Below, one piece after another: positions 2,120 through 60,500 of a DNA stretch of 64,000 bases (position 1 is its first letter; every line of letters starts with the position of its first letter). The stretch is from the NCBI GenBank assembly GCA_973895155.1, contig OZ316892.1:30743702-30807701 (forward strand), in the 5' to 3' direction. Position numbers and translations under genes: made by a program. The notes under the pieces are model-generated. The model was not told where the DNA came from and did not search any database. It saw only the letters and a program-made list of their open reading frames with translations. Origin of the DNA: Marsupella aquatica (Eukaryota; Plantae; Marchantiophyta).

Positions 2120-2184
2120 TCATAGCAATACTTCCAAGTTAGTTGCCCCACCACCAAGCAACCTACCTTGGTCTATCTTAGAGG

Positions 2185-2201: not shown

Positions 2202-2220
2202 AAAACAAGCCATAGCCATA

Positions 2221-5200
2221 TGTCAACAGCTTGCATGAGAACTAATGAGTTATTTACCACTAAATATTTTATAATACTATCCTATAATGTCAACCAGGTC
2301 CTATTAGGGGGTCCTCCTTGGGCATTTATTGCTATCATGTCAAAATACTCACACTCATAGGTAGTTTGGTTTCCGCCACCAGAAATGTAGATTCTGCTTG
2401 AAACTATCTTCAACTCACACTCTCAACTCTCATCCTTCTCCCATAAAACCCAAATATTCATAGCTGTCACCTATGAACCATCTTCCTTCCCTACCCTAAT
2501 CAATGACCTTAGTACTCACTTAAACTTCTTTCATCCCCAAGTCTAACCGATGAGTCTTGACTCACCTCAAGCTCCTGCCCAAGATCTTCAACCACACATC
2601 TCTAGCTTGTGACCAACTCCATGTCTAAGCTTTCTCTTATCACTAATAAATTAAACACTATTAATAACACAACTTCAAAATGCACAATCTTCCACCTCTC
2701 AACTTCAACATAACAAATGCCAAGGCCTTAGATCTTCATCCACTTCTCCATTGGAGCACAATCAACAACCTAGCTTCCTTCAACATAGGTGCATGTACAC
2801 ATCAAGGTGTGGTTTCAAAGTAAAATCATTTTACTACACACACAATGAGGTCCATACATGGCACAAACTCCCCATCCAAGCACTACTCCTCAAGCTAGAG
2901 CAAGTATGTGCAAGAACACAATGGAAGAATGGACATTGGCCTCAAGAAAAACTTCACTTCTTATACAATTCCTACTAGGCTACTACCCCTCTGATAACAT
3001 GGTTAAGAAGAAAGGAATAAAGAAAGTGGAAAAATTAATTTTTTTTGCCTTTGAAGCGGGAAAGAAAAACCTTAAATGCTAAGCAAACCATTATTGAAAG
3101 TCTAACAACCATTCAAGAGATTAAGAGAAGGAAAAGAGGCTCAACCGGAAGAAAGTATTTCTTGGTAAAAGGAAGGAAACCGGACCACGAACCGGAAGCC
3201 GTAAAATTGTCTCTGGACGCTATCAAGAAAATCTAACACCAGGTTCTTGAAGCCGAGGCTACGCTCTTCGTCCTGGGGAAAACCCATAAGCATTGGACTC
3301 CTGACAGTGAGCCGGAATCCCTCTTAAGAACAAACCGGTTTTGCTCTTCTCACACCTCTCAAAGCTGAACAGAGTAAGTTTTGAGCTCCCGAGTGAATAG
3401 GCTTGTCGAAGCAGTAGAGAAAGTAGGCTCTTCCCTTCCGGTTGAGGATCTTGGGTCCGGATTATAGGACCATTCTAGTTTCTGTGAGAGAAAGGTATAA
3501 GAGAGCCTTGACAGACTCGTGTGAGGTGGCAGCCTACTCCTACGCTTGGAGGGAAGGCTGGGGATGTGGAGATTGGCGCTAAGGCCCCCTGTTTTGATAG
3601 TTGTCTACTTCCGGGGCTTGAGCCGGTTTCTGAATCGGAACTGAACTGGTGGCGAACCGGTTTCTGCTATATCTCGCTTGCTGGACGTTTGTTTTTGCTG
3701 AAAGTATGCTGAGATGGAGAAGGTTGGCTGATATACGCGACGGAGTAATTATAGAGGCTTTATTCACTTCTAGCTCCTACCTTCTGCCTTCATCGGTTCA
3801 AATCTATTTGCTACTCCAACTACCAGGCAGTATGAAGAGTGCCAAGAGCAGTCCTTCTTCCAAGACTCAGAGTGGGACTCCAGTAAAGCCTGAAGTACGA
3901 CGTTCAAAGAGGAAGGAGGCTCAGATCACCATGAAGCCCTTGAGACCCCTCATTCCTACTGATGCAATTGAGAAGGAACAGCTCCGAAAAGATCTTACAC
4001 TAATGGGCTGTGCCTCCTTGATGGATCTTACTTGGGGATTTCTGAGTGAAGACATGGTAAGGGAAGTGCTGGCAGGAGTTCCTCCCACAGAATTTTAGAA
4101 GACTGCACGAGCTCGACCAGAAGCTTGGACCAAGGCATTCGTTGGAGAAGCTTTTCAGCTACCAGTTAAAGGGAGTGGCTTCTGCCCCAGAGGAGAGAAT
4201 CTCACAGTGGAATACTTCGGTGGCAAGATGGATGCCAAAGAAGGATGGACCATCAACCAGTGTACTCACAAGGACCTTAGGAACGTGATGGCATTCCTAG
4301 TCCCCCTCATCTATCCAGAGAAACCAAGGAGGGTGATTCTTAAAATAGGAAGTACTATCACTGCTTCCTTCTTCAAAACTAGAGAGGTATCATGGGCTAC
4401 TATCTTCTCAAGTGTTCTAGAGAAGCAGGTCTCCGCCTTGTCCAACAGAGCCCCCACTACTCTCTCCTATTACTTGGTACATCTATACTCTCATGACCAA
4501 ACCTTATTCAAACATGAGAAGAGTGCATTTGGCACCAAGAGCAGCTATGTGAAATATGGAGTCTTGGATCCAGAAATTCAGAGCTTACCAGAGTCTGAAG
4601 ATGACCCAGAGCCGGAAGAGATCGACTTTGTAGGGCCAACCAGGAAGAGGAAGCTCGACAAAATTGAACCGGCTTCTGATCCGACTTCTGAACCGGTTTC
4701 TGACCCAGTTTCCTACCCGATGAGTGGCACTACTACCTCTTCAACCGGTTTTTCACACTCTACCTTACACCATTTTTCTTGTTTATTCAAGGATCTTTCG
4801 GCCATCAAGACCAAGATGGGAATCATGGAACCAGTGCTCTCAAGGCTCTCCCAGGTGACTGGTGTGGCTCCTGCTGACCTTGTGAAGAAAGTGGAGGACC
4901 TGATGAAAGGAGATGAGAACAAGGTCAAGATTGAGCAGCTAGAGAAATCATTAGAGGAAGAGAAGAAGAAGAACTATCATCTTGAACAGTTGCTGCACAA
5001 GGCAAAGGAGAAGACCACAGCGGAGCAACTACTCTTCGATAATATTTCCAGAGCTATGGATCACCTGGAACCCTTAGTAGAAACCAAGGGAGAGGACCTG
5101 GTACATACCCAACTATTCAGGCAGTACTTCATTGATGTTCCCAATACCCTTCTCATGCCCTTAGTCATCCAAATTGCACATGACTATGGTGACAGGGTGG

Positions 5201-6320
5201 AAGAATGCCTCTCTGCCCTCAAGCTTATCCTTGCTTAACTGAAGAAATTCTATGACCTTTCTGATGAGGAGCAGACTCAATTTGCAGAGAAAGTCACTGT
5301 TCCATCTCCACAGGTGACACCAGCAGAAGGATGGGCTGACTCTCCTGATCCTGATATCACTCCTACCATAGTTATATCCAATTTGCCACCCATTCCGACC
5401 TCACCATTTACTACTACCTTTGGAGGTATCACTTTCATGCCAAACCCTCTCAACTCCATTGATCCAGCAGTAGACTCCACATCGGTGAAACCTGATACTT
5501 CAACTCCTGAAGAGTAAAAAGTTATTCCATCCGGAAGTTGAACCGGCTTCCCATCCGGTTTCCCACCCGGTTTTTGATCCGGTTTCGTGTTTGAAGCCCT
5601 ATAAAACTTAGTATAGGAAGAATTAGACTTTGAATTTTTGCTGAGCACTTTATCTCATGGTCTAGTTTCAGACTTTAGCATTACTTTTTACTTTTACACT
5701 TAGGTTAGGAATTGAAGGGGCATACCTCTTCAACTTTTGTTTAGAGGAGACTTGTCCCTAAGTATAAGAGGGAAAGTTTCCACCATTTTACTCAGACTTA
5801 CATTTCACGTTTGAAAGTCTCCTTCTTTGAAGAGAAGTAATAGATTCATAATTTTGGTGATCTATGCTTTGTGTTTGGACATAGTGTGTGACCATTCTTG
5901 CTAGAAAATCTATGGAAAGTGACTAGCAATGTCATAGTTAACCTTTAGGCTGACTGGAAATGTATGCCTGAGACCATGCAAAGGTCTAAAGATTCATGTT
6001 GACTATTGAATACTTATGGCTTATTAAGTATTAGTGTAAGAAGCACCATACGAGAACTCACAAATTGCGTAGTCCTAAAAGAGCAATCTGAAGGATTGAA
6101 TAGAAGAATAAGTTAGTTCGGAGTAATCAGTACCACCTTTGCCTTGACATAGGTCAGAAAGTTAATATGGGCTATTTTATATACATCTTTTACAAATTCT
6201 TAGATGGTTGGCTTTAAAGATGAGCTTTAGGCATCAGCCTAATTTAGTCAGACTCTCTGTTGACTCTTAATCATGCCTAACTTAGTCATAGATTGCTAAG
6301 TGGTGAGAGGAGATGAGACA
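2221..6320 (-). mobile_element. Putative ~4.1-kb 5' LTR of the leftmost gypsy element; contains an ORF
   Basis: Starts TGTC (2221) about 20 nt from the PBS, with the same CA-TATG...TTTTTGG spacing as at 30541-30551, and ends GACA (6320). The partner LTR and TSD are outside the window, so the right boundary is inferred. Confidence 0.55.
3832..5517 (+). pseudogene. Retrotransposon accessory protein (PMD-like N-terminus plus coiled coil) with two in-frame stops; antisense to gag and inside the putative LTR
   Basis: ORFs 3649-4098, 4207-5238 and 5314-5517 are all in one frame (TAG at 4096, TAA at 5236). LRKDLTLMG...RARPEAW...GW...C...FLVPLIYPE...SWATI aligns by eye with the 20736-22826 protein (LREDLTTMG...RARPSNW...GW...C...FLSPIFHPE...NWTQI). 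Confidence 0.75.
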
Positions 6321-6413: not shown

Positions 6414-8453
6414 TGTAGTATTGCACTAAGGACATAAATCAACATTTAATATCCAAAACTCGGTATTCGATCCCATGGAAGAACAAGAAATGAATGATTT
6501 TTTATCATTTAACACTTATGAATGACTAAGGTCACAAAAACACAGGTTTGAGCCTTTTACTATGATTGCTCAGCAAGACATAGATTTGAATGTTTGCTTA
6601 ACATTGTAAATACAATTAATAAAATGGAAACAAATAACAAAACACAATGAAATCTTGAGGTATGATGAGGGAGTCTGGAAAACACCAAGGTAACTTCTCA
6701 TCAATACTTCATTTAATATGATTTGGGTGGTAAATCCGTAAGAACATTTCTGGAAGGGATTACTATACTAGGATGATTACTAAAATGCCGTCAACACGTC
6801 TCAACTTTTCCTTCCAAAGGTACTCAGAAGAAACTAGTAATCAATCACTTCGATATCCAGTCGGTACTTTGAGTCACGAATAATAAACACCATCATGATC
6901 AAATTGAAGTCATAGGTAATTGGTGAGTAACAATCTTTGCATCCGTGCACAAGCAATGTCATGCCAAAAACTATGCATCAAGAACTCAAGAAGATGGGTT
7001 GTCACCACTTAAGGAATCTATTCCCTCATACTTCTGAGATTCAACTTCATACAAGTAATTTTACTTCAATGATCTAAACTCTCAATCATTCAGACCAAGG
7101 AAGGGAGAAGAATTCCTTTGCATTTGCAAGCTCCATACCATATGAAAACACACGAAAGCTTTGCAAAGGTGATTCCAGTGTTGCAGCACATGCCACAGGC
7201 ACTACTTTATTTCTTCACACTCGAGAATAACACAAATTCTACTTCATATAGGCTAGCAGGAACCCAAGGAGATTGAGATACTGAAAGGACATGCCCTTTC
7301 ATATCTAAAGGGTCTTGAATAAACTTAATGACGGTCATCCTTGAAAAGTGAATGGACACTGCTGAAAGTGTCAAAAATGCAGGGGACTTCTCAAAGCGTC
7401 GAGGTTTGAGCGGACGCTTTGCAAAGCGTCGGTGTTTTTTGGTAAAACTAATAAACAGTGATCTTAATCTAATTTTAACTTCTAAACTAAGAGTTGGAAT
7501 GAGTTGAAACTTTTCTAGGGTACTCTAATACATATAATCTCTATGCTGGCAAAGTTTCAGACTTTTCTGAGATCTCTAAGTGCCTCAAATAAATAGGTAA
7601 AAGTGGTGCAGTGTTATAAAAGTGCGAAAACTAAAAATATTTCTAAGTGTCGAGAACATAGTGGACGTTTCAGAAAGCGTCCAAAACTACAAAGGACTTT
7701 TGTGGACGCTTCAGAAAGCGTCGGCTGAATTTTGAGGTTTGGTCGCAGCGTCTGGCTTCTGGTCTTCAGGCGGGACGCTTCAGTGAGCGTCAGTGTCGAT
7801 GTTGCCTTCGGGGTAGCAGACGCTTCTGTGGGCGTCGCTCCTCATGTGGATTGCAGAGCGTCAGAGTACAACTGGTTGGGTGGCGGACGCTTCAGAAAGC
7901 GTCGTGGTCTTGGGTGGACGCTTTTCAAAGCGTCCAAAACTACAAGGGACGCTTCACAAAGCGTCGGCGAAGTCGCGGCTATGCGAAAAACAGCAAAACT
8001 AAATTAATTTTAACTTTCAAACCACATGTCGGTTTGAGATGAAACTTTCAGGGATGATTCTACTATGTAACTACTAACTCCTGAAAACGTATGAGACTTT
8101 TCTGACCGTGAGAACTATTTAACTAAAATAGCAGAGATTGGCTGATTGTGATAATTGTATACAGAGCTCATTCTTGTTGAAGAAGTGTTTTGGAGTCCGG
8201 TTCTTGAATCTTCTAGTCTGCATTGCTTCTCCAATGACATCCAGTCTTCTTTCTTGGTAGCATGTAAAGAGCAAGGATTTATATTGTCGATCCTTGTCCA
8301 ATATAGGCAATAGCCTCCGATGAAGCATAACATTAGGTAAAGTGTTCGGTTGATCTAAATTACTACAAAAGGTAACTAGATTGCACCTTTGAGTTAGAAA
8401 AAGTTTAAAATTTATAAAATTTTCATCATTTCTAACTAATGTACAGCATTACA
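6414..8453 (-). mobile_element. Solo LTR (2040 bp) related to the nested gypsy family
   Basis: TGTAGT...ATTACA termini and a 5-bp TSD GCAAA (6409-6413, 8454-8458). 7410-7790 is clearly homologous to 19450-19830, including the GGACGCTT-N4-AAGCGTCC palindromes. Confidence 0.8.
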
Positions 8454-18581: not shown

Positions 18582-20299
18582 TGTCGTATAGCCAAAAGAA
18601 CAAAAAGGAACACTTTTTACATAAAGACTCGGAATACGATCCCTTTAAGAACAGATTTGGAAAGAATTGAATGAATTTATCTCTCTGAGTAATCTAAAGC
18701 TCTCAGCACATAGATTTCTTGTTTCTCACTAAAAGATCAAATAAACAAAACACCAAAGTAAATAAACTTCTGTCTTATGAGTCAAGAGAGAGTCAATTAT
18801 GGTCTGAAAACTCTGATTAGCTATTGCCACTCCTTCAAAAAGGACTATGGTCTTAGAATAGACATAAAACAAGTCTCATAACTCACTAATTTCTCTCCTG
18901 ACTAAATAAAATTGCATGATAAGGAATTTCCAATTTGCTAAACAAGTATTGCTCTGGTTACAAATGTAATGATATGACTTAAGATGCCGGCAACATGGTT
19001 TGACATCAGCGATACGCAATTCCGTCAAACACTAAATCATATTCCATAAACAAAGTAACGGTACTGAATACTCTGAGAACCAAACTTTACTTCTCACATA
19101 TCAAACAACAACTCTTGAATTAGCTAGCGAATCTTGACCCTTCAAGCAAGCCTAGCAGTGAATTCAATGTAAGTCACAGAAGTTTGTAACTGAATTCAAG
19201 TATCAAGAAATTTCTTGAATTCATAAATTCAAACATAAGTTTTACTTCCATACAAGACTTTTCTTGTTAAAATGGAAGGAGGGAAACTAACAGAAGTCTG
19301 ATTGGAATTGTCCCCCCCTTCTTCCGAATGGAAAAACCATGAGGTTTTATAAGTAAAGGTTCCCTTAACTGAAAAGGCATGACTTTTCAAACCTCAAATA
19401 TCTAAAAGACAATCCTAAAAGAAATAAAGAAATGCATTGGAGACTTAGTGGACGCTTTGTAGAGCGTCGGTGCTTTCCGGTAAAACTAATAAACAATGGT
19501 GTTAATCTAATTTTAACTTCTAAACTAAAAGTCGGAATGAGCTGAGACTTTTCTAGAGTACTCTACTACATATAATCTCTATGCTGGTAAAGTTTCAGAC
19601 TTTTCTGAGGTCTCTAAGTGCCTCAAATAAATCGGTGAAAGTGGCACGGTGTTATAAAAGTACGGAAATCAGAAATATTTCTAAGTGTCGGGAAGATAGT
19701 GGACGCTTCAGAAAGCGTCCAAAACTACAAAGGACTTTTATGGACGCTTCAGAAAGCGTCGGCTGAATTTTGAGGTTTGGTCGCGGCGTCCGTCTTCCGG
19801 CCTTCAGGTGGGACGCTTCAGAAAGCGGCGAAGTCTGTCTTGGCGGACGCTTCAGAAAGCGTCGATTCTGCTTTGTCTTCGAACACGGTCGGACGCTTCA
19901 CAAGGCGTCACTTCTCATGTGGACGCTTCAGAAAGCGTCTCATCGGACTTTGGGGTTAGCGGACGCTTCAGAAAGCGTCTTAAAGCGTCCGGTGTCTGGT
20001 TCGAATAGACGTTTCACGAAGCGTCTTCTATTCCGTGGTATCGGTGAAGGACGGCTCAAAAAGCGTCGTGGTTAAGGGGGTCGCATCTGGTTGGCAGCAA
20101 CCGTGGACGCCTCAGCTGTCTTGAGGTTTATTGGCTTTGTAACTGGGGACGCTTCAGAAAGCGTCCTTAGTTAGACTAAGTGAGTTAACCGCCAAATGGA
20201 AAGTAGACGCTTCAGAAAGCGTCGTTTTTGCTCAAAAAGTTTGAAACGATTCAGATTTTTCTCTTATGGTCGTGTTTCAGCAAAAGTCTCCTTTCCACA
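18582..20299 (-). repeat. Gypsy 3' LTR (1718 bp) with an array of about 13 palindromes
   Basis: TGTCGTATAG...TTTCCACA; nearly identical to 30551-32268 (at least 3 substitutions seen). Confidence 0.97.
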
Positions 20300-20316
20300 T
20301 AGCCCTCCACTCAAAA
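20300..20316 (-). promoter_or_regulatory. Polypurine tract of the gypsy element
   Basis: Minus strand TTTTGAGTGGAGGGCTA abuts the 3' LTR. Confidence 0.85.
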
Positions 20317-20400
20317 TTTGCTGTGTCCGCACAAGAAGTGAAATAATATATTTGATCAGGCACTTCTGAAGTGGCTCTTTAATGATGTGGAGTTGTAAAA

Positions 20401-20844
20401 TTACATTGGAGGCCAAGGGTCGAGTAGAGGCAATCGAGCAAGTCCTCTGATAGCGTGGGAGCCTTGAGTGCGAGAAGAGGAATGTAGTTGGAGTCTCTGT
20501 AGCTGTTCTCTGAGTTTAAGCAGATCCTTCTCATACTTATACTGAATTGCATATCCGTCATGAGCAACCCAGACATAGTAACGATAAGGCCATGGATGTT
20601 CTGGAGGTATAGGAGGAAAAGGACAAAGGGTTCTTCGAAGGGTATACACCCAACACCATATTTCATACTCAGAGAATTTATGTCTCCTGTCCTTATCTAT
20701 AGGTGGAACAACTTTAGGAAATTTATACGTAGGAATCAAAGTACGAATGCTGGAGGACATAATCCTGGCAAAACCTGTTGTTGCTGTCTGATACTCTCTA
20801 CTTCCAAATGCCTGAAAGCCATATGGTAGTCTTTCTTGGTCCAA
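20401..20844 (-). CDS. Possible small additional ORF in the gypsy 3' region, function unknown
   Basis: 147-codon open frame (first ATG at MSSSIR) overlapping the end of the accessory ORF; Trp/Tyr/Pro-rich with a short helical tail. No recognised domain. Confidence 0.3.
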   Translation of the reverse strand: MDQERLPYGFQAFGSREYQTATTGFARIMSSSIRTLIPTYKFPKVVPPIDKDRRHKFSEYEIWCWVYTLRRTLCPFPPIPPEHPWPYRYYVWVAHDGYAIQYKYEKDLLKLREQLQRLQLHSSSRTQGSHAIRGLARLPLLDPWPPM

Positions 20845-22826
20845 GAATTAATAGAAGTAAGATTGGGGATAGGAATAGGAGGTGGTAACTCAACCGATCT
20901 CCCTAATTTTGGTGGAATTCGAATAATTCGAGGATCTGCCTCATCCTCACTGCCATCACTTGGCGCACCTATCCATCGAAAAATAACCCCTGGAGTATTG
21001 GAAGGAATCACAGATTCCTTAGCAGGAGGACAAGGTGAAGTCTCAGGAGACAAAGGTGCAATAGTAGGCTGTACTAGCTCTGGAATTGCCCTATCTCCTC
21101 GACCTGCACTGGGTGGTTCGTTTTCTAGCCGTAACTCCTCTGAGTAGGCAGCTACCTGCTCCGAATCGTTATATGGTTCCTGCTCATACTGCTCTTGTAC
21201 CTCAATCTGAGCCTCCACAAAATCTGTAGCAGCATGTAATTCCACCGAATCTTGAGCTTTCCGTAACCTTTTCCATGGTCGACGCCTATAAGTAACTGGA
21301 TACTCATCTCGGGCTCGAGGTGGAGAAGCTGTAAGTGGCGCGTCCAGAGAAGCATATCTCTCAAAATCGTTTGGAGCTGATATGTGCTGAGGTGATGCCC
21401 CAGGACTCTGTTCCGAACTATCATAGCCCATTGGTATTGTGGGTAACCGGGAGATTTGACTTAATCTCTCAGCTAAGTCTTCCGAAATGTCCAATGGTAC
21501 CGCCACCATACTACTACCTTCCTGCTGACTTGAATCATCTCGTTCAGATCTTCGCAAAAAGGAGACATCCTCCTCATCATCAATCTCTACAATTGCATTC
21601 TCACCATCACTTCTTGAAACATCAAAACCTGGTATTCCTAAAGGTTGAATGTCTTGGGGAAAACCAAGGACATCCTGTAAGGGTGGCTGTGGACTCCCAT
21701 TGGAGTATTCATCCGATTGGTAATCCTGTAATGAAGCCAAAGCGTCCGGTCCTTCTGCAGCTAGAGATGGGGATAAACTTGGTAACTCATTCAAAACTAC
21801 ATTTTCTGCAAAAGAAGGTAAAACTGAACCTTCACCTGGTGATTCCGCAGCTGTCTCTGGTTCCTGAATAGCTTCTTCCGGGTTACGCAGAGGGATGGGA
21901 CTCCCACATTGTGAACTGAGCTGGGCCTCGTGCATCAATTCGGCTTCAATATCATGCGAAAGTCGGTCAGCTAGCTCCTCGTCAACTGTAGGAGTGTCCT
22001 CCTCTGGAATTTGAGTGGCCTGCTCATGTGCTTCAACCAAATTTCGGACATTTGGTAACAACTCAGCCTCTTCGCAGTCTAATAAAGTACACAATGCAAT
22101 TAGAGTATCCTGAGGATTGTTGAGTGGCTCATCCGATCGACAACTCACGTCCATTCGCACCTTAGTCCTCAAATTTCGATAAATCCTTTTCTCTGTCGGT
22201 AACAGGCATCGCTTCTTGTAATAAATATGCGCGAAGTAGGGTGTCATTTGCACCTTCCTCAACTTCCTTGCTCTGACTCGACTTCGAAAATTCTTCACCT
22301 GCGCATGGATCACTCTATGTAGGATTTGAGTCCAATTGATGGTCTTCCTCTGTTCCACAGAAAAAATCACAGTGGCCGCAAACGACAAGGTAATACGCGT
22401 TTGACTCTCAGGATGAAAAATAGGGGAGAGGAACCGAAATAAATGCTGCAATCGCGCTTCTATGCAATCTGCCGCCACCCAGCCATTCCGCCTCTTGAAT
22501 GTTCCCGGATAAAACAGAGATTCAACGTAAGCCCTAGGTTCGCCTTCTACTTTTTGTAATCCTTCGCCTACGCTTGGAGTCAAATAAACTGATGAGATGA
22601 GCTCCTCATTCCAATTGCTTGGCCTCGCGCGTATCTCCGGTCCTTCCTCTCCGTCCCATTCGCCTCGATCGATCAAGCTGAATTCACAAATACTCCAAGG
22701 AAACTTTAGGAGATTCTTCAAGCCCATAGTCGTCAAATCCTCTCGTAGTCGCCTTCGATCATCTATTCCTAATGGAATCACAACAACTATCGGACGCGCA
22801 GTGACTTCTAGCTCCGATTCCGCCAT
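20736..22826 (-). CDS. Intact 696-aa gypsy accessory protein (PMD-like N-terminal domain, acidic disordered C-terminus)
   Basis: ATG-initiated and uninterrupted, between integrase and the 3' LTR on the same strand as pol; homologous to 3832-5517. Confidence 0.85.
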   Translation of the reverse strand: MAESELEVTARPIVVVIPLGIDDRRRLREDLTTMGLKNLLKFPWSICEFSLIDRGEWDGEEGPEIRARPSNWNEELISSVYLTPSVGEGLQKVEGEPRAYVESLFYPGTFKRRNGWVAADCIEARLQHLFRFLSPIFHPESQTRITLSFAATVIFSVEQRKTINWTQILHRVIHAQVKNFRSRVRARKLRKVQMTPYFAHIYYKKRCLLPTEKRIYRNLRTKVRMDVSCRSDEPLNNPQDTLIALCTLLDCEEAELLPNVRNLVEAHEQATQIPEEDTPTVDEELADRLSHDIEAELMHEAQLSSQCGSPIPLRNPEEAIQEPETAAESPGEGSVLPSFAENVVLNELPSLSPSLAAEGPDALASLQDYQSDEYSNGSPQPPLQDVLGFPQDIQPLGIPGFDVSRSDGENAIVEIDDEEDVSFLRRSERDDSSQQEGSSMVAVPLDISEDLAERLSQISRLPTIPMGYDSSEQSPGASPQHISAPNDFERYASLDAPLTASPPRARDEYPVTYRRRPWKRLRKAQDSVELHAATDFVEAQIEVQEQYEQEPYNDSEQVAAYSEELRLENEPPSAGRGDRAIPELVQPTIAPLSPETSPCPPAKESVIPSNTPGVIFRWIGAPSDGSEDEADPRIIRIPPKLGRSVELPPPIPIPNLTSINSWTKKDYHMAFRHLEVESIRQQQQVLPGLCPPAFVL

Positions 22827-23160
22827 CGCTCAGTCAGCAATCTCTTCTGGCGCAGCTCCACTCTTCCCTCAATCAGGGTCGCCACCTCCTCTATATCAAT
22901 CATCGGTAATGAGCGCTACTAAACTTGGTTTCAAAAACCACTCGTCGTTTCTCTTCTTCGACCCATTAGACGTCACAATCCCTTGCCGTACTTGAGATCA
23001 TTCCAAAATTTCAACTTGTGCTGGACGCTTCAGAAAGCGTCTCAAAAAAAATTTTAAAAAAAATTTTCCAAACATAATCTTTTAATCTACTATTCTAAGC
23101 CCTTCCATACTAGTATTTCTTACAGATATAAAATATACCTATCCCAGCCCTCCACTCAAA

Positions 23161-26100
23161 CTACGACATGTCCTCATGCGCGGAATAGAAGTGATAGGGC
23201 TTTAATCTAAAGCCATTAATTCTAGTGTCTAAGGGGGATCCATCTAAAGTGGTTAAGGATACAGAACCATTAGGCCATATGTTCTCAATTCGATAAGGGC
23301 CGATCCAATGGGTATGTAATTTACCCGGAAAAAGCATGTAGCGGGAATCAAAAACTAACACTAAATCATTATTAGCTAGCTTAACCTGTTTAAGCTTTTT
23401 ATCATAAGAGTGTTTCCGGTTTGCTTGGACTACAGCAGTATGTTCTAAGGCTAAAAGTCTATTTTCTTCTAATTTCATAATATCAACAAACCGACTCTCG
23501 ATACTTGCTTCAAGGGTGAATCTCTCAGGAATAAGTAAGCGCTCAGTAGGAATGGAAAACTCAATAGGGATAATACTATCAACCCCATAAGTTAAATAAA
23601 ATGGGGTTCTAATTAAGGGTGGTAATCTTTTCAGCAGTACGGTAAGCCCAAAGCGCAGAGTGCAATTTTACATCCCAGTCAGTCTTGTGAGATTCCACCA
23701 TCTTATTCAGAATCTTGCCCATAATGCCATTAGCTCTCTCCGTTAAGCCATTAGCTCGGGGGTTGTAAGGAGTAGTTTTGCGATGCTTGATAAGATATAT
23801 GTCAGTAATTAACTCAATAGTTGAGTTAAGAAAATGTAGACCCCTATCGCTGACCAACTCCAAAGGACACCCGAACCGAGTAATAATATGCTCAAAGAGA
23901 AAAGCAGCCGCTGTTGTAGCATCATTCTTGCGAGTGGCTTTAGCCTCCACCCATTTGGTGGCATAATCAGTGGCCAGAATAATGTATTTGCTACGACTTT
24001 TCTTAGCGGCTGGTGAAATTGGGCCTACAAAATCAATACCCCATTTCTCAAAGGGGGCCAAAGGAAGGATGGGAGTGAGTGGCCATTTAGAAGATGCAGT
24101 GGGTTTGCCTACTCGTTGGCATGGATCACAGGTTTTAATAAAATTGTAGGTGTCCTTGTGCATTGTGGGCCACCAATATCCGGCATCTTGAATTTTCTTA
24201 ACAGTGGTGGTAACTGCATAGTGTCCGCCTGTCTCACCAGAATGTAAGGCTGCAATTACCTGTGGAATTTCTCTCATCTCAAGGCAACGCCGTAACCTTT
24301 GATCAGGGCCTTGCTTAAATAAGGTGCCTTTGATAATTGTATAAGGACCTACCTTATGTGCAAAAACAGCCTTCTCCTCTGCATTAAGTCCTTCTGGAAA
24401 GACCCCATACAGCAACATCTTCACAATATCAAAATATTTTGAGGACTCGCCTTCAATGTGCCAAAGGTGCTCATCCGGAAAGTCGTCAGACAGGTTGTGG
24501 TCATTCTCTGTACCTGGAAGTCTAGACAAGAAGTCGGCATTCTCATGGTGTTTCCCTGGACGGACTTGCACCTCGTAATCAAATTCCTGAAGCAGGAGGA
24601 CCCATCTAGCCACCCTCCCCGACAGGTCAACTTGATTAACCAGGTATTTCAAAGAATGATGGTCCGTGTGAAAGATGATCTGATATCCAAGAAGATAATG
24701 ACGAAACTTTTTGCAGGCAAAAACAATGGCTAAGGCTTCTCTTTCGGTAACTGTATAGTTTTTCTCAGCAGCACTCATCTGCCTACTGGCATAATAAATG
24801 GGATGATCCCTATTGTCGTCATCCTTTTGACTCAAGTTAGCTCCGATGCAGAAGGCAGATGAGTCAATGAAAACATGAAACTTCCTACTCCAATCTGGTG
24901 GGGAGAGAATGGGCGCAGTCACAAGGCGGTCCTTTAGTGTTTGAAAAGCTTGCTGTCTTTCTTCATTCCAAACATAAGGTTCATTTTGTTTGAGCAATTT
25001 GGTCAGAGGCATAGCAATATCAGCATGTTTATGAATGAATCTGCGATAATACCCGACATGCCCTAAGAAGGCACGGAGTTGCTTCAAATCCGTCGGAGGT
25101 TGAAGTTCCACGATCACCCGGACCTTTTCTTTGTCCACCTCTATGCCACGCTGAGAAATGACATGGCCGAGCAAGATACCTTCCTGCATTCCGATGAAGC
25201 ACTTCTCGGGGTGTAAGCACAATTGAGCTTCCCGACACTTCTGGAAAGTCTTATCGAGGTGCATTAAATGGTCAGCCGCCGATCCATACACACAGAAATC
25301 ATCGATGAAGATCTCCATGAAGTGCCGAAGGTACTCCTGAAAAATAATCATCATGATACGCTGAAAAGTGCCTGGGGCATTACACAACCCAAATGGCATC
25401 ATTGCATACGCATATGTACCCCAATCTGTTGTGAACGTGGTCTTGTCCCGATCCTCCTTTCGAATGGAAACCTGGTTGTACCCAGAGTATCCGTCCAGAA
25501 AAGTATACAACTCATGCAATGCGACCTGATCAAGCACTAGATCTATGAAGGGTAAGGGATAATGGTCCTTCCTGGTGGCTGCATTCAATTTCCGATAGTC
25601 CTAACACACGCGGATTTTTGTCTTTCCATCAGGTCCCGCCTTCTTGGGTACAATGACAATGGGGGATACCCATTCACTACTCAAGACGGGGTAGATGAAA
25701 CCAGCAGCAGTCAACTTATCCAGCTCCTCCTTCACAAGGACAGAGTACTTGGGGTTCAAACGGTACTGCCTTTGACGGACTGGCACTGCCCCTTCCATCA
25801 AGTCTATCCGATGCTCTCCCAGATGAGGGTGGATGCCCTTCAAATCTGAATGACTCCATGCAAAAACATCCTTGTACTGGGTCAACAACTTAATGTACAA
25901 GTCCCGCAACTCACCCTGGATATGCTTTCCTATATTAAGGAACTTGCCAGGTTCAATCTCAACTTTTTGACAAGCCTTAGGGTCCACTATACCATCCGTT
26001 AGGCCTGCTGGCCTAAGCTCCAAATCACCAACATCAGACTCACTGATTTCCGGAGAGGGAGGGTGTTTTCCATTACCGGAGGATACGCCATGCATTTGCT

Positions 26101-26173
26101 GATCTGAGAATTGTTTCCCTGTATCATGGCCGACTCCTTGTAAGTTTGCTTTCTCCCCTTCCGGTGGAAATTG
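23161..26173 (-). pseudogene. pol: Gypsy pol: RT, RNase H and integrase, with an in-frame TAG at 25601 and a frameshift near 23610
   Basis: SEWVSPIVIVPKK, FLDGYSGYNQ, MPFGLCNAP, FIDDF, DSSAFCIGA, TDHHSL, H...GH...CDPC, WGIDFVGP, SDRG, NGLTER and W-x-GPY motifs. Confidence 0.95.
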
Positions 26174-29100
26174 TCAAAAAGGGTCCTCAGAAGCTAATCC
26201 AGTCTCCACAACTGGATCAGATAGGTAAACCTCCAAATAGCGTACCTCCTCCAACTCAAACTCCAATGGCTCCAGAATCAGGTTGGAATCCGAAAAGTCT
26301 GACGTATACCCGTCGTCAGTTTGCGTCTCGCCCTTATGATCCTCAGTAGCCCAACTCACCACCACCTTGGGTTTACCAAAAGACATCTCTTGAGCTTTCC
26401 AATTTACCTGCACTTGGGCTTTATACAACCAGGGGCGGCCTAACAAGACTGGAAAGCTGGAAGGTACCTCTGGACTTATTATCACATATTCAAAAGTAAA
26501 TGGAACACCAGCAATCAGAGTATCTACCTTACTTAATTTTCCCGCGGGAACAACTCGAGATTGGTCCGCCATGCGCAGGATCTTGGGTGTTGGTTCAAAC
26601 TTAGTAAATCCAAGATTAAATGCAGTTTGCTGAGTCATGAGGTTGACGCTGGAACCACCATCCACTGGTACTCTCCTCACAACACATCCTTGAATTTGTA
26701 CGTCCAGCTCTGGTGGTCCCTTATCCTCCCATTCCAAACGTAATACATCCACCTCTGGCAACTTACGCCGCCTTCGCTTTCCTGCCAACAATCCTCTCAA
26801 TTGGCGTCTATAAACCGGGTTGTCTTGCAACAACTCACCAATGGTGATATGAGCAAGATGGCCCTTCACGTCTTCTACAATATCATATCCCTGTTGCTTT
26901 AACACAGGTCGTTCGGGCTCCTTCACCACTGACTTCTGAATTGAATGCGAGGTGTGATCTTTAACTAGTTCCTCTAATTGAGCTTTTACTTCTGAAGAAA
27001 TGTCAGGTAAAAAATATTTGGGATCATAGCGATCATAAGCTGGGTCCTGATCCTTGGGTAGGCCTTCCTCAAATGGAGCTCGTTCCTTCGGCTTAGGTCC
27101 CTTCTTTTGGTGCTTCGCTACTGCTCGTTTCTCCTCTTTCCGCTTGGAACGAGTAGTTGCATAGGTATCCGTTAGAACTTTATCCCGATCCTGAACTCGA
27201 GCATTAGGCATGCCCACCACCCCTGGCTTCACCAAGTGATCCACTAACACATCAGGAACAATTCCGGCCAGTGGTTGAGCAAACGTGGAGTGGCCTGTCA
27301 CTTCCACTCTGTTCACATCCCCATGGTGGATCATTCCACAATGCTCAACCTCTTCAGAGTACACCATCCTCACTTTAGCCTCTGGTCTGATTGTCTCCTT
27401 GACAGGCTCTTGAGCAAAGCGAACCATCATTTTTGTTTTAGGCGGATTTGGACATTCCACAGGCAAGTGCCCTTCCTTGCCACAATTTCCACATATAGGG
27501 GTGTATCCCTCTTCTCTCTTCGGATACGGACATTGCGGTGAGTAGTGGTCCGGCTGACCGCAATTCCAACAGGATCCTTTCTGCCGTGGAGCTCCTCTAG
27601 GGGGGTATCCTCCTGGAGGTCCCATAGGCGGCCTGGGAACAGGTCTGTTGAAGGCAGGTTTTGGCGGTACCCAATTATTCATTGGTGGAGGGGCAGGTGG
27701 GAAATACTGACCTCCTGGTGTTGCCTGAACTGCATATGCCGGCTCGTATTCATAATCTTCTACCTCCTCCGGTCCTTCCAAGTAATTTACTGCCATACGC
27801 CAATTTGGGCACTCCGTCGGATAGTGCCCTTGCTGATTACAATGGGTACACCACACGTTTGTCCTCATGGTTGGTGGTAATCTTCGCACAGGTTTCACCG
27901 TAGCAATATGTACATTCAGCTTAGATAGCTTCCCGGTTATTTCCTCCATCATGCGATCCATTTTTTTCTGAGTAGAAGTCTTAGGCTCTACCTTCGAGGT
28001 TGACTTCTTCTTCTTGGAGGCGGACTGTTCCGAATCTGAACTAGAACTAGAGCTAGCGCTCGCACTAGTGCTTGAATCCGTACTCTCATCGTCTTCACTA
28101 CTGCTGCTGTCACTATCGTCCTTCTCCGAATCAGATTTAGACTTTGATTTTTTCTTCTTTTTCCTCTTATCTTTCTTCAAGTCTTTCCTCACTCGCTTTT
28201 TCTCAGAAATTTCAGAATCCACATACTTCTGCGCTGATTCCTGAACTTCCTCCAAAGTAGTACCACCTTCACGCCTGACATATCGAGCAATTCGTGACGG
28301 CAATCCGTTGATAAACCAATCCTTCACAGTAGACTTAGATGTGGCTGGATTATATTGGTCCACCAAATCCAACAGTTTATCCGCATATTTCCTCACAGAC
28401 CCATGTTTCTTCATGTGTAAATGAGAGATCCTAGCAAAAGCTCGAGCGGCAGACCCCTCCTCTTTGTACTTAGCCAAGAAGGCAGCCTTCAACTTACCCC
28501 AGTCATGTTTATCTGGAAAGCGATCATACCACTTTTGAGCTCTCTTCTTCATCAGTCCACCAAATAAATTAGCCTTTTCCGCATCTTGGCTTTGTCCATT
28601 TGAAGCTGCAGCAGCTTCAAATTCCTTCAAATAGACTTCTGCATCCTCTTTAGATGATCCAAAGAATCTATCATATCTCACATTGTTACGAGCCATTATA
28701 GTAGGACTTAGATTAGGGATGGGCAAGGCAGATCGGATGGCAAACGGATTAGTCCAAGTTTGAGGACTTAATACAATAGAACTACTAGATTCTGAACTAC
28801 TGCCGGAGCTCTTCTCGCCTGAAGACGACCCTTCTGATGAATTAAATGCTGTGAAGCCTTCAAGTTCTTCTAGAGTTGGATTCTGTTGTAAAATCCCTTC
28901 GACATCTGATGGTTTCCTTGAATGCTGTGGTGGACCAATCAACTTGGGTCCGGATCGCAAATTCACATATAAGGGTCTACTGGGTGCAGGATTTTCCAGA
29001 GTCCCTTGGGTTACCCTAGTCTGAATGGAGGTTACCTTCCTTGTCACACTTCCCGGTAAAGGGAATTCTGATGCTTGAAACTCAGACAGGAGGTCTCGAG

Positions 29101-29182
29101 GCTCCACTGCCTTGCTCGAGGATTCTGATTTATAAGAAGCTTTCCTCCATTTCTTTTTGATTTGGCGAGCTTCCTCCGACAT
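26174..29182 (-). CDS. gag: Gypsy gag-protease polyprotein (1002 aa)
   Basis: Capsid-like region, three CCHC knuckles (CTHCNQQGHYPTEC, CWNCGQPDHYSPQC, CGNCGKEGHLPVEC) and a retropepsin motif VDGGSSVN...LLGRPWL. Confidence 0.93.
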   Translation of the reverse strand: MSEEARQIKKKWRKASYKSESSSKAVEPRDLLSEFQASEFPLPGSVTRKVTSIQTRVTQGTLENPAPSRPLYVNLRSGPKLIGPPQHSRKPSDVEGILQQNPTLEELEGFTAFNSSEGSSSGEKSSGSSSESSSSIVLSPQTWTNPFAIRSALPIPNLSPTIMARNNVRYDRFFGSSKEDAEVYLKEFEAAAASNGQSQDAEKANLFGGLMKKRAQKWYDRFPDKHDWGKLKAAFLAKYKEEGSAARAFARISHLHMKKHGSVRKYADKLLDLVDQYNPATSKSTVKDWFINGLPSRIARYVRREGGTTLEEVQESAQKYVDSEISEKKRVRKDLKKDKRKKKKKSKSKSDSEKDDSDSSSSEDDESTDSSTSASASSSSSSDSEQSASKKKKSTSKVEPKTSTQKKMDRMMEEITGKLSKLNVHIATVKPVRRLPPTMRTNVWCTHCNQQGHYPTECPNWRMAVNYLEGPEEVEDYEYEPAYAVQATPGGQYFPPAPPPMNNWVPPKPAFNRPVPRPPMGPPGGYPPRGAPRQKGSCWNCGQPDHYSPQCPYPKREEGYTPICGNCGKEGHLPVECPNPPKTKMMVRFAQEPVKETIRPEAKVRMVYSEEVEHCGMIHHGDVNRVEVTGHSTFAQPLAGIVPDVLVDHLVKPGVVGMPNARVQDRDKVLTDTYATTRSKRKEEKRAVAKHQKKGPKPKERAPFEEGLPKDQDPAYDRYDPKYFLPDISSEVKAQLEELVKDHTSHSIQKSVVKEPERPVLKQQGYDIVEDVKGHLAHITIGELLQDNPVYRRQLRGLLAGKRRRRKLPEVDVLRLEWEDKGPPELDVQIQGCVVRRVPVDGGSSVNLMTQQTAFNLGFTKFEPTPKILRMADQSRVVPAGKLSKVDTLIAGVPFTFEYVIISPEVPSSFPVLLGRPWLYKAQVQVNWKAQEMSFGKPKVVVSWATEDHKGETQTDDGYTSDFSDSNLILEPLEFELEEVRYLEVYLSDPVVETGLASEDPF

Positions 29183-29236
29183 ACCTCATTCTTAGCAATA
29201 GTAAAACTTCTCTCCCCAGTTAATTGTCTTGCTACA

Positions 29237-29590
29237 TTACTGAATCCAGGTCGTACTCAGAAGTATTGAAGGAAGATGTGATTCATGAGGCCCCATTATG
29301 AAGAAATCCAGGTGGTACAGGCGATCACCAATTTGAATAGGTACTACCCTCATCTCCCCCACAGGTTTAATCAATTGGCCATTGATCCAGAACTGTGTGT
29401 AAGTTGGTAAAATTGGTATGAGAGCCAGATTCTGAGCCAAACGAATAGAAAGCAAATTAATTCGAGAGCCCCTGTCTATTGAAACTTCCTTAATCAGGTA
29501 TCCCGCCAATCTCACCTGAGATTCAAAAGAACTTTGGATGGCTCTTGTGAACACATTGGAGGGATGCATGGTAGCTTTGATTACAAGCAT
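29237..29590 (-). CDS. Stand-alone retropepsin-like (aspartic protease fold) ORF upstream of gag
   Basis: EVSIDRGSRINLLS...KPVGEMRVVPIQIG...LDFFIM...SILLSTTWI parallels this element's own protease RVPVDGGSSVNLMT...VPAGKLSKVDTLIAG...FEYVII...VLLGRPWL. Confidence 0.65.
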   Translation of the reverse strand: MLVIKATMHPSNVFTRAIQSSFESQVRLAGYLIKEVSIDRGSRINLLSIRLAQNLALIPILPTYTQFWINGQLIKPVGEMRVVPIQIGDRLYHLDFFIMGPHESHLPSILLSTTWIQ

Positions 29591-30523
29591 CTTTCAATGC
29601 CACTCAAATTTTGAGAAAACACCCACTACAGATGGAAGCGGTCACCTTGGCTTTTCCCAAGGGGCATGCCTCTTGCACCTTGTGTCGAGGGATTCGAACA
29701 GGTATGTCCATTCAACTCTTGGGAATCCAAAGTGTCTGGAAACCCATTCAATGCCTTGGAGATCTTCTCCTGACCCCTCTTCATATCCTTCTTTGGCTAG
29801 GTTTACCGCAGCACTTCCTATCTCATCCCCCTATTGGGCCCCATTTCACCTTGAAGCATTGTACTAGCCAATTCCGAAATAGAAATTACAGTATATCTCT
29901 CCTGAGTAATCCTACCATTTAATCTCAGCATTACCAAATGCAAATTCAAACCTTCCCACCATATTATGGACAGCCAATGAACTCCCCTTCTACCCCTCAC
30001 ACTTAACACCCATGTTTGCACATATTGATTATGCAAATTCCTAACTCGTAGGGAGCCTAATGATCTAATGGGTGGGGGCATTCTTCAAGAATCCTCCACC
30101 CCTAAGGTTGGCTTACAGCCTAAGTATCTCAATAATTTTTAGCATTGGCTCTAACACTTATCCTAAACAAATTGATCTCTTCAATAAAAAGGGTAAAACT
30201 CTTTCCAAACTTCACCTATAATCCACTGATTATCTTAATCTCGATTCCTACACACAGAAATCTCTTTCTTCACATGGAAATCAAGCACCCTTGAGGCTAT
30301 CCTTTTTGGCCTTAATTTCCTTCCTTCTCCTTCTCCTATTAAGGAGGGCTTCCTCCCTCATCATCTCCCGGAAAGCTTCCGGGGCATTTGCTAGGGTGAA
30401 GGGTCGAACCTCCAGCACCTGAATTGGCCATTGTCCTGAATCTTCCATTAAGTAACTCCTTCTGACCAATTCAACCTCCTCGGTTGGCATTCACTGCCTT
30501 GATATCAATCCATTCCATACTGT

Positions 30524-30541
30524 TCCCCGGCAGCGGCGCCA
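30524..30541 (-). promoter_or_regulatory. Primer-binding site, tRNA-Asp type
   Basis: Minus strand TGGCGCCGCTGCCGGGGA, 9 nt after the 5' LTR end. Confidence 0.9.
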
Positions 30542-30550
30542 AAAATCATA

Positions 30551-32268
30551 TGTCGTATAGCCAAAAGAACAAAAAGGAACACTTTTTACATAAAGACTCG
30601 GAATACGATCCCTTTAAGAACAGATTTGGAAAGAATTGAATGAATTTATCTCTCTGAGTAATCTAAAGCTCTCAGCACATAGATTTCTTGTTTCTCACTA
30701 AAAGATCAAATAAACAAAACACCAAAGTAAATAAACTTCTGTCTTATGAGTCAAGAGAGAGTCAATTATGGTCTGAAAACTCTGATTAGCTATTGCCACT
30801 CCTTCAAAAAGGACTATGGTCTTAGAATAGACATAAAACAAGTCTCATAACTCACTAATTTCTCTCCTGACTAAATAAAATTGCATGATAAGGAATTTCC
30901 AATTTGCTAAACAAGTATTGCTCTGGTTACAAATGTAATGATATGACTTAAGATGCCGGCAACATGGTTTGACATCAGCGATACGCAATTCCGTCAAACA
31001 CTAAATCATATTCCATAAACAAAGTAACGGTACTGAATACTCTGAGAACCAAACTTTACTTCTCACATATCAAACAACAACTCTTGAATTAGCTAGCGAA
31101 TCTTGACCCTTCAAGCAAGCCTAGCAGTGAATTCAATGTAAGTCACAGAAGTTTGTAACTGAATTCAAGTATCAAGAAATTTCTTGAATTCATAAATTCA
31201 AACATAAGTTTTACTTCCATACAAGACTTTTCTTGTTAAAATGGAAGGAGGGAAACTAACAGAAGTCTGATTGGAATTGTCCCCCCCTTCTTCCGAATGG
31301 AAAAACCATGAGGTTTTATAAGTAAAGGTTCCCTTAACTGAAAAGGCATGACTTTTCAAACCTCAAATATCTAAAAGACAATCCTAAAAGAAATAAAGAA
31401 ATGCATTGGAGACTTAGTGGACGCTTTGTAGAGCGTCGGTGCTTTCCGGTAAAACTAATAAACAATGGTGTTAATCTAATTTTAACTTCTAAACTAAAAG
31501 TCGGAATGAGCTGAGACTTTTCTAGAGTACTCTACTACATATAATCTCTATGCTGGTAAAGTTTCAGACTTTTCTGAGGTCTCTAAGTGCCTCAAATAAA
31601 TCGGTGAAAGTGGCACGGTGTTATAAAAGTATGGAAATCAGAAATATTTCTAAGTGTCGGGAAGATAGTGGACGCTTCAGAAAGCGTCCAAAACTACAAA
31701 GGACTTTTATGGACGCTTCAGAAAGCGTCGGCTGAATTTTGAGGTTTGGTCGCGGCGTCCGTCTTCCGGCCTTCAGGTGGGACGCTTCAGAAAGCGGCGA
31801 AGTCTGTCTTGGCGGACGCTTCAGAAAGCGTCGATTCTGCTTTGTCTTCTAACACGGTCGGACGCTTCACAAGGCGTCACTTCTCATGTGGACGCTTCAG
31901 AAAGCGTCTCATCGGACTTTGGGGTTAGCGGACACTTCAGAAAGCGTCTTAAAGCGTCCGGTGTCTGGTTCGAATAGACGTTTCACGAAGCGTCTTCTAT
32001 TCCGTGGTATCGGTGAAGGACGGCTCAAAAAGCGTCGTGGTTAAGGGGGTCGCATCTGGTTGGCAGCAACCGTGGACGCCTCAGCTGTCTTGAGGTTTAT
32101 TGGCTTTGTAACTGGGGACGCTTCAGAAAGCGTCCTTAGTTAGACTAAGTGAGTTAACCGCCAAATGGAAAGTAGACGCTTCAGAAAGCGTCGTTTTTGC
32201 TCAAAAAGTTTGAAACGATTCAGATTTTTCTCTTATGGTCGTGTTTCAGCAAAAGTCTCCTTTCCACA
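30551..32268 (-). repeat. Gypsy 5' LTR (1718 bp)
   Basis: Direct repeat of 18582-20299. Confidence 0.97.
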
Positions 32269-57533: not shown

Positions 57534-60500
57534 TCACGACACCGGTGGTGGATCCTCAATGGACGCCCCCAACACTTCCTCCGCAGCCACTGCCGTTGGC
57601 CCGCCTACTGACAGATTACCTGCCCTTGACCGAGTCAACTCTCCCTCGGCCTGACTGGGTCCACCTTCGGCTTCAGCCTCGACACCGGCCTCGGCAATAC
57701 CCACGGCTTCGGCTTCAGCCACCCCCACGGCTTCGGCTTCAGCCACTCCCACGGCTTCGGCCTCCCCTTCCCCTAGGGTAGTTGGATCCTTAGCCGTGAC
57801 CCTGTCTGGGGTCGGTGCTGGGTCTACCTCCTTGATCACCACGGCCTGTGAAGTCGTATTACTCCTTGACCCTGAAGGTTTCCGCTTCTTCTTCGTTGGT
57901 GGCTCGGCAGCTGGTCCCTTCCCCTTCCCACTTACCTCCGGCACTGGTGCAGGTGGCGCGGCTTGTCCTTCGGCAATTACCACCCCTGGTAACTGGTTTG
58001 TCCCAACAGGAGATGGACCTGCTGCAGCTAAGCATTTAAATACTGCGGCTTGTTTCTTCAGCCGCTCTGTTTGGTTGTCGGCCCGCCGCTGTAGGTTCTC
58101 CATCTTCCTCGTGATTTCCTCCAACTCCTCTTGGGTTTCATCCAGGTCCTTACGTGCCCCCTCCAGCTCGTTTTTGGCCTCCTCCTGCTCCCTGTGGGCT
58201 TCCTCCAATTCCTTCTTCAAGGTAGCCTTCTCCTCCTGGGTTGCTCTTAGCTCCTTGTCGAGCTCTGCAATGATGACAGACTCCATCTGGTTCATCTTGG
58301 CGTAAGTCTGTTCGAGCATCTCGTCCTTCTCCCTTAGGTCGGCCTTGAAGCTGGCCGTCAGGGACGCAAGCTCCTGCTGCAGCGCCATAATCCCTTGATA
58401 GGATTTCCCTAACTCGACCTCCTTCTGCTCAAGGGCTCCGCGGATTTTCTCGAGCTCCCCTTTCAACGCCCATTCCTTTCTTTGGGTCTCCGCCATGGCC
58501 CGGCTGTTGGTTGTTATGTGGGCCTCCTCTGTATTCTTCAGCTCTTGCTTCCACTTTTCCCTTTCTTTGATCGTGTCGGCCAACTCTTCCTGCGTCTGAG
58601 TCAGTTTATCCTTGATATTCTGATTATCAGCCTGCGCGGCGTCCAACTGCCCCTGCATGATGTTCAGCTCATGTCGTTTAATCCGCAGTTCATCTTGGGC
58701 TTTCTTGGCCGCCCTTAGATCTTCAATCTCGGCTTCCATCCTCCTAAGCCGCCGAATGACCTCGTCCTTCTTGCTTCTCTCTAAAGCCACCGCTTCTTCT
58801 AATTGGTGCTTCTCCAACTGCTCCCTATGGAAAAAGGGTCCTACCTCCAACTCCTCTCCAAAGATGCCGAGCGCAAGTTCCCCACACATCTCACCATACT
58901 CCATGGCTCTATTCTTAGCGTAGGTGGAGTAAGTAGAAGTGATCGGCATCGCCCATCGTGGCCTCTGCTCCCAAGCCGTCCTGCGGATCTCTTCAATCGT
59001 GGCTAGAGGTTTGCTTCCTTTTTCGGCTAGCCGCCTGATGTCCTCCGGCCAATCTCCTCCTGGTAAATCCTTTTCCTTAGCCAGGGCGGCCTCTTCCTCC
59101 TGCTTGATTCGCTCCTGAAATTCCTGCACCGTCTGTTTTATGCCGTCGAAGCTCGGGGGAGCAACATCTGGTGGGGGAGACTCAGGGCTACTCTGCTGGT
59201 TGGGGTCCCCTCGCACTACCCTTGGAAGTGTGGGGACAAACCGGCCACAGGTCCTTACTCCTGGAACGTGATGGTCTGACCCATAGCCGGAATTATCATG
59301 GCTGCAGTCCTCCACTGCCTCCTCTACCTCTTGGATTTCCGGCTTCTCCCTCTCCTCTTCCTCGGTAGGAGCTTCAGGCAATTCTGCCTCAGATTCGGAG
59401 CTTGAGGTTCCCACGTACATTCGAACACCTGGCTTGGATTCCGGCCTGATTCTCTCCTTGTCTCCAGCAAAGGGGTTTTCTCTTGTGAGCCGGTGTCGGC
59501 CTACCTCTGTAGTAGTGTCCTGCATTGTTGCCGTTGCCGTTGTTGTTGCCGATGCCGATTTCTTTTCTTTCTCCAGTAGTTTCAGCAGACTCTGCATGCC
59601 TGGTTGCTGCATCGGCAAGTCTTCCTTCCTGGGCCTAAACACCTGCTCGATCGTAGGACTAACAGGTGGTTGAGGCTTCTCAGCCAACGGCCTCGGCGTT
59701 GGAGCTTCCTCGGGTGCCCTTACCTGCAGGGGAAGTACCGGGGCAAAAGTCTGACCTCTGGCATACCGGCACAACAGCGGCATGTGATAGCCAAGCCGCG
59801 ACACGCTCCCCATGCCGATTACCTGCTGCTCCTCCTTTAAGATCTTCTTCAATTGGTTGAGGAGGTACCCGTTGTAGTCCCGGCTTGGGTCTGGCCTTTC
59901 TGCCAGATAGACCTGTGCCTTGCCGATCTCTGCCCTCGGCAAGTTACAATGCATCGTCACCCGCAAGAAGTCGATCATCTCTCCTATGTGCGGGTTGGTG
60001 CAGGTGTTCCGGAAGAAGCCATTCTTCGTTGATGGCCCGGGGAACGACCGGAACTCCTTGTCAGGCAAGGTCTTCCTGGTATCAACTTTGGTCTTATTGC
60101 CCATCGGCAAGCCAAACACTTCGGCAATCACCTTGGGAGTAAGATAGAAATCCTTCCCATATATCCTCGTGCAATTGGTCTCGGGTTCCCATGACCCCAC
60201 GAATTCTAATAGGTCTGACTCCGGTACCTCCGGCTTCAGCCATGGTAATCTTACAAAGGCCTCCAAGCCGGATCCGGCCATGAAGCCTTGGTACTTCTTG
60301 GTCTGCATGGCCGTAAAGCATGCATCCTCCTCCCGTGCAAAATGTAGTTGCACCTCCACTGGTAGGGTTGCCGCCCAGCCCTTCCAGGTGTCATCCCTGG
60401 TTGGAATGGCCTTGATGGGATCGACCTCCTCCTCTTCGGCTTCTCCCTGCCTCCTGCTCTGCTGCTCGGCTGGCTTCTTTGGTGCCGCCGACCTCGTTCT

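Follow-up and report, generated by a model that had tools for sequence, protein, structure and literature searches.

VANC proteins unsilence the VANDAL elements that encode them, and both their DNA binding and demethylation have been shown (Hosaka et al. 2017, PMC5735166). Repeated motifs of another kind are described from Sireviruses, in which each element carries 8-32 family-specific palindromes, located in the upper half of the long terminal repeat (LTR), upstream of the TATA box, together with CpG islands, extra copies before an 'env-like' gene and extra polypurine tracts in the region between pol and the LTR (Bousios et al. 2010, PMC2829016; 2016, PMC4728375). In the available text of these papers, the motifs are linked to small RNAs from hairpins and to stress factors of the host, and the protein of the extra gene is not put forward as their reader. 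Extra open reading frames (ORFs) of OTA Gypsy elements include Athila ORF1 (PF03078), Transposase_32 (PF20167), PMD (PF10536) in Ogre and Transposase_28 in Retand (PMC6317226, PMC11728184, PMC11963269, PMC7264820), and the Retand domain has been suggested to bind DNA (PMC11963269). The function of such 'env-like' genes has been called open (PMC7264820), and a 2026 paper asks whether they shape the methylation of their own elements (PMC12844716). Here, we analyze a 64-kb stretch of the liverwort Marsupella aquatica (contig OZ316892.1, positions 30,743,702 to 30,807,701; henceforth termed the window), which contains a Ty3/Gypsy LTR retrotransposon, element A, with palindrome arrays in its LTRs and an accessory gene downstream of pol. 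On balance, we lean towards reading the palindromes as double-stranded DNA binding sites of the accessory protein, which has a predicted VANC21/PMD-type fold and would keep the regions around its sites unsilenced.

A scan of the window with a 20-mer at up to two mismatches yielded 28 hits, compared with 0.02 expected (100 shuffles, largest count 1). A looser scan, using the 18-nt core at up to five mismatches, located 12 copies in the 3' LTR (starts 19451, 19702, 19743, 19812, 19846, 19892, 19922, 19962, 20008, 20050, 20148 and 20206) and a degenerate extra match at 19972 that overlaps a counted copy. An earlier sequence-only reading had listed the same 12 sites, all to within 1-2 nt, and had given them 8-bp arms around a CAGA centre. 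The arms are in fact 7 bp long, since only 5 of 21 copies have a Watson-Crick eighth pair, and the conserved unit is GACGCTT-N4-AAGCGTC (18 nt); the centre is always 4 nt long but reads CAGA in only 12 of the 21. This set of 21 comprises the 3' LTR copies, eight from a solo LTR and one lone copy, with the 5' LTR excluded as a duplicate. Within this set, the left arm always has GACG and the right arm always GCG.C, and 18 of the 21 copies clearly point the same way, the remaining three being ambiguous. The other locations named in that reading held up as well: the 5' LTR has a matching set of 12 copies (18-mer scan, starts 31420-32175), one of which has lost a CG, and the lone, perfect copy, described as about 200 nt before the accessory ATG, lies 198 nt upstream of it. 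For the roughly nine copies claimed for the solo LTR, we count eight clear ones (starts 7413-7948) and two degenerate ones (7355 and 7383), in an LTR longer than had been assumed. Because all 12 LTR copies lie upstream of the TATA-like box, at 77-832 nt from the end of the LTR, we place them in U3. The palindrome is enriched in the non-coding regions of element A, with no enrichment in its coding regions. Copies are spaced by 30-98 nt with mostly unrelated spacers; helical phasing was not found among them (2.9-9.3 turns), and the array of element A contains no CCGG pairs.

The palindromes also stand out in conservation and CpG content. The diverged LTR that shares them is a true solo LTR with its own target duplication, and its alignment to the element A LTR begins exactly at the left end of both. 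In the well-aligned part, 10 of 11 CGs are kept between the two LTR families in motifs, versus 4 of 12 in spacers; in the distal part, the outer arms are conserved at 44 of 45 positions and the spacers at 35 of 70, in an alignment that itself leans on the motifs. A diverged contig, recovered in two of four runs, aligns over 22949-23038 and thus includes most of the lone site, with unaligned flanks. At and beyond the end of the solo LTR, 7947-8105 resembles 19450-19608 (66% identity) and is perhaps a piece of another related LTR. Observed-to-expected CpG ratios reach 1.35 in the array (1.03 in spacers alone) and 1.11-1.14 at the start of the accessory gene, compared with 0.31-0.58 in the leader, gag and pol; with the sites masked, the ratio is 0.80 within 300 nt of sites and 0.51 beyond 1 kb. 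The layout resembles that of Sireviruses: in element A, 12 palindromes precede a TATA-like box in the upper part of the LTR, an extra copy stands before the accessory gene (at -198), and CpG islands occur in both places (1.35 and 1.11). It differs in its core (GACG/CGTC versus CGG-CCG in Sireviruses), in having one copy rather than 2-18 upstream of the extra gene, and in belonging to Ty3/Gypsy rather than to Ty1/Copia SIRE elements.

The accessory gene had been described as a 696-aa ORF; that ORF is present, yet it is only the first frame of a longer gene whose second frame (20751-20401) shares 69% identity with the C-terminal end of the homologue P0001. The frame break near 20750 is absent from sister copies (contigs of four out of four runs). 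In one aligner, a structure model of the N-terminal domain matches VANC21 (PDB 9LNK, a VANC21-DNA structure). Foldseek returned nothing at E<=0.001 in viral structures or the PDB and was empty again on a second look, a PDB sequence search gave only coiled-coil noise outside the domain, and the protein stays below every Pfam cut-off. Transposase_32 (PF20167) comes up for P0001 at E 0.014 (15.7 bits versus a cut-off of 45) and at E<=0.05 in 2 of 113 members, which with an atlas score of 0.89 is a lead only. For the C-terminal domain, neither Pfam nor the atlas gave a match, and its model is unusable (predicted local distance difference test score 39, eight sequences). It carries the blocks W-x-W-x-Y-x-x-R-R and W-x-x-x-D-G, found in P0001, P0003, P0004, P0005 and P0124, a subgroup of the family. 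Word-based protein searches recovered only P0001 and P0002; 3 of 67 metagenome candidates were relatives, two of them from one family, while viral contigs yielded no tandem motif pair and no relatives among 28 and 22 candidates. As an ORF in sense orientation that follows pol and precedes the 3' LTR, and with a weak likeness to PF20167, the gene resembles the extra ORFs of OTA Gypsy elements, from which it differs by the additional conserved C-terminal domain of no known family; nor do the available parts of the papers cited above tie a target motif to OTA ORFs.

Related families carry other motifs. In element 1, which has a homologous accessory gene, sibling sites are built on CCGG and keep the 12-bp CG spacing seen in element A (10 occurrences versus 2.0 expected, p=0.005); those at 3610-3639 lie about 200 nt before the accessory ATG, and three of the element 1 18-mers have the TCAGAA centre of element A. 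The 12-bp spacing was not found in L001, which shares the gene order of element A and a pol 62% identical to it, in L003, or in a third family. The two accessory homologues of this third family match the domain at E 1e-5 and 5e-4; the domain also occurs in three metagenome loci. Each family is enriched in its own CG-containing hexamer (z 9-17; 6.9 in L003, which spans only 1.3 kb), compared with null maxima of at most 5.8; z reached 5.1, 6.0, 4.4 and 2.9 in four control regions and 7.1 in another region, which contains tandem repeats and an unrelated ORF. Word counts across families form a diagonal. Four independent families carry four different words, which is not a formal test of coevolution. 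In L001, L003 and the third family, words are enriched even at synonymous coding positions (TCCGGA in L001 pol, 12 versus 2.9; AAGCCG, 19 versus 5.5; AACCGG, 5 versus 1.0). The word does not cluster in L001 or in the 57-64 kb family but occurs all along the element. TCCGGA, noted for L001, L002 and L003, occurs throughout the whole L001 element (1-6092), with 37 copies in 6.1 kb. The 1207-aa homologue of the third family is flanked by inverted repeats of about 750 bp (57159-57913 and 61271-62004, 88% identical) within 57159-62560, where it faces, head to head, a Gypsy gag that is preceded by an LTR-like end and a primer site (62541-62560). The interval 49141-53136 holds a second copy in rearranged form. 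Within 54247-56798, GCTCGCG-rich tandem repeats of 47 and 64 nt lie some 400-700 nt upstream of a 618-aa coiled-coil ORF that the domain profile does not match, and repeats and ORF are possibly a fifth protein-motif pair.

The analogy to VANC, which the sequence-only reading had drawn, gains independent support, if only in part, from the match of the domain model to VANC21 and from the different motifs of related families. Like VANC proteins, the accessory protein is encoded by its element and combines a conserved domain with a highly variable region, and its predicted fold may match theirs; as in VANDALs, short motifs have accumulated in non-coding regions, and related families differ in motif. 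Element A is, however, an LTR retrotransposon (Gypsy gag, reverse transcriptase, RNase H and integrase) and not a Mutator-like DNA transposon, and its host is not a dicot. Several observations weigh against a VANC-like reader: the fold match comes from one aligner only, at 7% identity; Pfam finds neither DUF1985 nor DUF287 in the protein or in any of the 113 aligned members; no sequence link to PMD was found; the target is palindromic and contains CG, whereas VANC targets are neither; and the array of this copy shows CpG decay. The accessory protein is not a VANC by sequence, but it likely works like one. We propose that it reads, probably as a dimer, two GACG half-sites with CGs separated by 12 bp, or roughly one helical turn. 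The many U3 sites would load many protein molecules onto the promoter, where local loss or exclusion of methylation would let the LTR fire, and the lone site would add positive feedback on the accessory gene. If protein and motif diverge together, each family would unsilence only itself; the present copy, in which the reading frame breaks ahead of the C-terminal domain, would rely on sister copies.

Whether the palindromes act as DNA or as RNA is addressed by covariation, the check suggested in the sequence-only reading. Among 10 changed pairs in the 7-bp arms over 21 copies, none is compensatory. A role as hairpins in RNA or single-stranded complementary DNA (cDNA), whether at the 3' end of the genomic RNA, as a small-RNA source or in strand transfer, could draw on the folding of perfect copies into 7-bp hairpins (-9 to -10 kcal/mol, z about -3), on a whole U3 that folds far better than shuffles (z -6.95), and on the maize Sirevirus palindromes, which form hairpins and are small interfering RNA hotspots (PMC4728375). 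Folding is nevertheless trivial for any palindrome, and the stem sequence itself is fixed; 9 of the 10 arm changes break the pair on the sense strand of the element, although 7 of 10 remain G-U on the antisense strand. Element 1 sites hold their spacing yet pair poorly, two of three tested folding no better than shuffles. Packaging and dimerization signals are expected downstream of the TATA box or near the primer site, and no palindrome copy lies in either place. We therefore regard hairpins as very unlikely, and since sequence and spacing are conserved and pairing is not, the palindromes likely represent a protein site on duplex DNA.

A protein site could also be read by the host. An enhancer for a transcription factor such as a TGA/OBF-type basic leucine zipper protein, with the accessory protein uninvolved, would explain the exact as-1/ocs geometry of two 8-mers four bp apart, each with a GACG core and with CGs 12 bp apart (PMC4677692; 10.64898/2026.04.29.721404), and the arrays sit upstream of the TATA box in U3, the usual location of host-factor sites (PMC2829016, PMC4728375); factor binding by itself could also retain CpGs. 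We consider this unlikely, though it deserves more weight than hairpins: TGACG occurs in only 2 of 42 half-sites of the element A set, the T being missing in the other 40, one host factor cannot read all of the GACG core, the CCGG core that element 1 holds at the same spacing and the other words of other families, and in three families the word is enriched at synonymous coding positions. The accessory protein may instead bind its sites for repression, cDNA tethering or integration targeting, given that a common fold is no proof of function, that MAIN, which shares it, serves silencing (PMC13547354), and that the array shows the CpG decay mentioned above. CpG retention near sites and, in two families, the placement of sites ahead of the start of the gene itself fit activation better, and we give such purposes little credence. 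Least probable, to our mind, is a neutral origin, in which template slippage produced the array and context-dependent CpG loss the family words. LTR U3 regions do duplicate readily (PMC4728375), and the unclustered words of L001 and the 57-64 kb family would suit this account; against it, motifs are kept while spacers turn over, a perfect copy lies 2.8 kb from the LTR without common flanks, and three families in one genome show three CG contexts, which one methylation system would not give.

Features of the window are collected in the table below. The domain order of element A (reverse transcriptase, RNase H, integrase) is that of Gypsy, and its non-Met primer site, which we take to be that of tRNA-Asp, long LTRs, extra ORF 3' of pol and lack of a second RNase H are OTA-type features. 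By these features, it fits the Athila-like group of the OTA lineage, whose features are taken from PMC6317226; Athila4 and Calypso are reported to have an extra polypurine tract (PMC2829016). The copia-like element that it interrupts (15022-35476, labelled by eye) has 346-bp LTRs that are 99.7% identical, so both insertions are recent. Elsewhere in the window, two short palindromes, CTAGCGA-TN-TCGCTAG, lie about 295 nt apart in a region (9659-9975) labelled by eye as resembling a long interspersed nuclear element, an intron-less pentatricopeptide repeat gene of the organelle RNA-editing factor type (1104 aa; E, E+ and DYW domains) occupies 38733-42047 and by its likeness suggests a bryophyte host, and three short telomere-like AACCCTA runs occur at 45186-45250.

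Table 1. Coordinates of element A, its palindromes, its accessory gene and related features in the window.
Feature	Position	Strand	Basis
Element A, Ty3/Gypsy LTR retrotransposon, 13.7 kb, 5-bp target-site duplication ACCAT, within copia-like element	18582..32268	-	
5' LTR, 1718 bp, 3 differences from 3' LTR	30551..32268	-	
3' LTR	18582..20299	-	
Primer-binding site, non-Met type	30524..30541	-	
gag(-protease) ORF	26174..29182	-	
pol (reverse transcriptase, RNase H, integrase), more than one frame	23191..26095	-	
Polypurine tract	20301..20315	-	
Exact 15-nt copy of polypurine tract, 105 nt upstream of lone palindrome, upstream of accessory gene	23146..23160	-	
Putative TATA-like box	19345..19351	-	sequence
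Palindromes of 5' LTR, 12 copies, one minus a CG	31420..32192	.	20-mer and 18-mer scans
Main array, 11 copies, 77-581 nt from LTR 5' end, CpG island (ratio 1.35)	19702..20223	.	
Outlying copy, about 100 nt upstream of TATA-like box	19451..19468	.	
Lone perfect palindrome, 198 nt 5' of accessory ATG	23024..23041	.	18-mer scan
Accessory gene, N-terminal domain, aa 1-235, basic (isoelectric point 9.7), predicted VANC21-like fold	22122..22826	-	
Accessory gene, acidic low-complexity middle (isoelectric point 4.05) and start of C-terminal domain	20752..22121	-	
Accessory gene, conserved C-terminal domain, out of frame in this copy	20401..20751	-	
Solo LTR of related family, 8 copies of the element A palindrome at 7413-7965	6414..7992	-	TG...CA, 5-bp duplication GCAAA
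Element 1 homologous accessory gene, one in-frame stop, domain 25% identical	3832..5238	+	domain profile E 1e-51
Element 1 sibling sites, CCGG-based, 12-bp CG spacing as in element A	3179-3203, 3610-3639, 4668-4697, 5530-5583	.	
Distant accessory homologue (third family), 1207 aa, family rich in AAGCCG	57534..61157	-	
Second copy of third-family accessory homologue	50102-52111	+	

A literature search, with most subscription journals outside its scope, found no paper tying an LTR-element accessory protein of VANC fold to an LTR motif; 10.64898/2026.08.24.746577, in its available part, concerns transposases. What appears new is this link between an accessory protein of predicted VANC fold and family-specific motifs, the layout itself having been published for Sireviruses. 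We put forward only tentatively, and with more doubt than assent, the broader idea that plant LTR retrotransposons run their own VANC-type anti-silencing, and that env-like proteins, as DNA readers of VANC fold, make up a large and quickly diverging family, each with a private CG-centred motif, already present in non-seed plants. The window offers a direct test, with a predicted well-folded domain of 235 residues, an 18-bp site and three related families as specificity controls, and, if the idea is true, a family of about 400 protein clusters would supply readers for targeted epigenome work. Sequence-specific anti-silencing would then extend beyond dicot DNA transposons to the element class that fills plant genomes, the repeated motifs of Sireviruses would be explained, and retrotransposons, not the host gene MAIN, would be a possible source of VANC.
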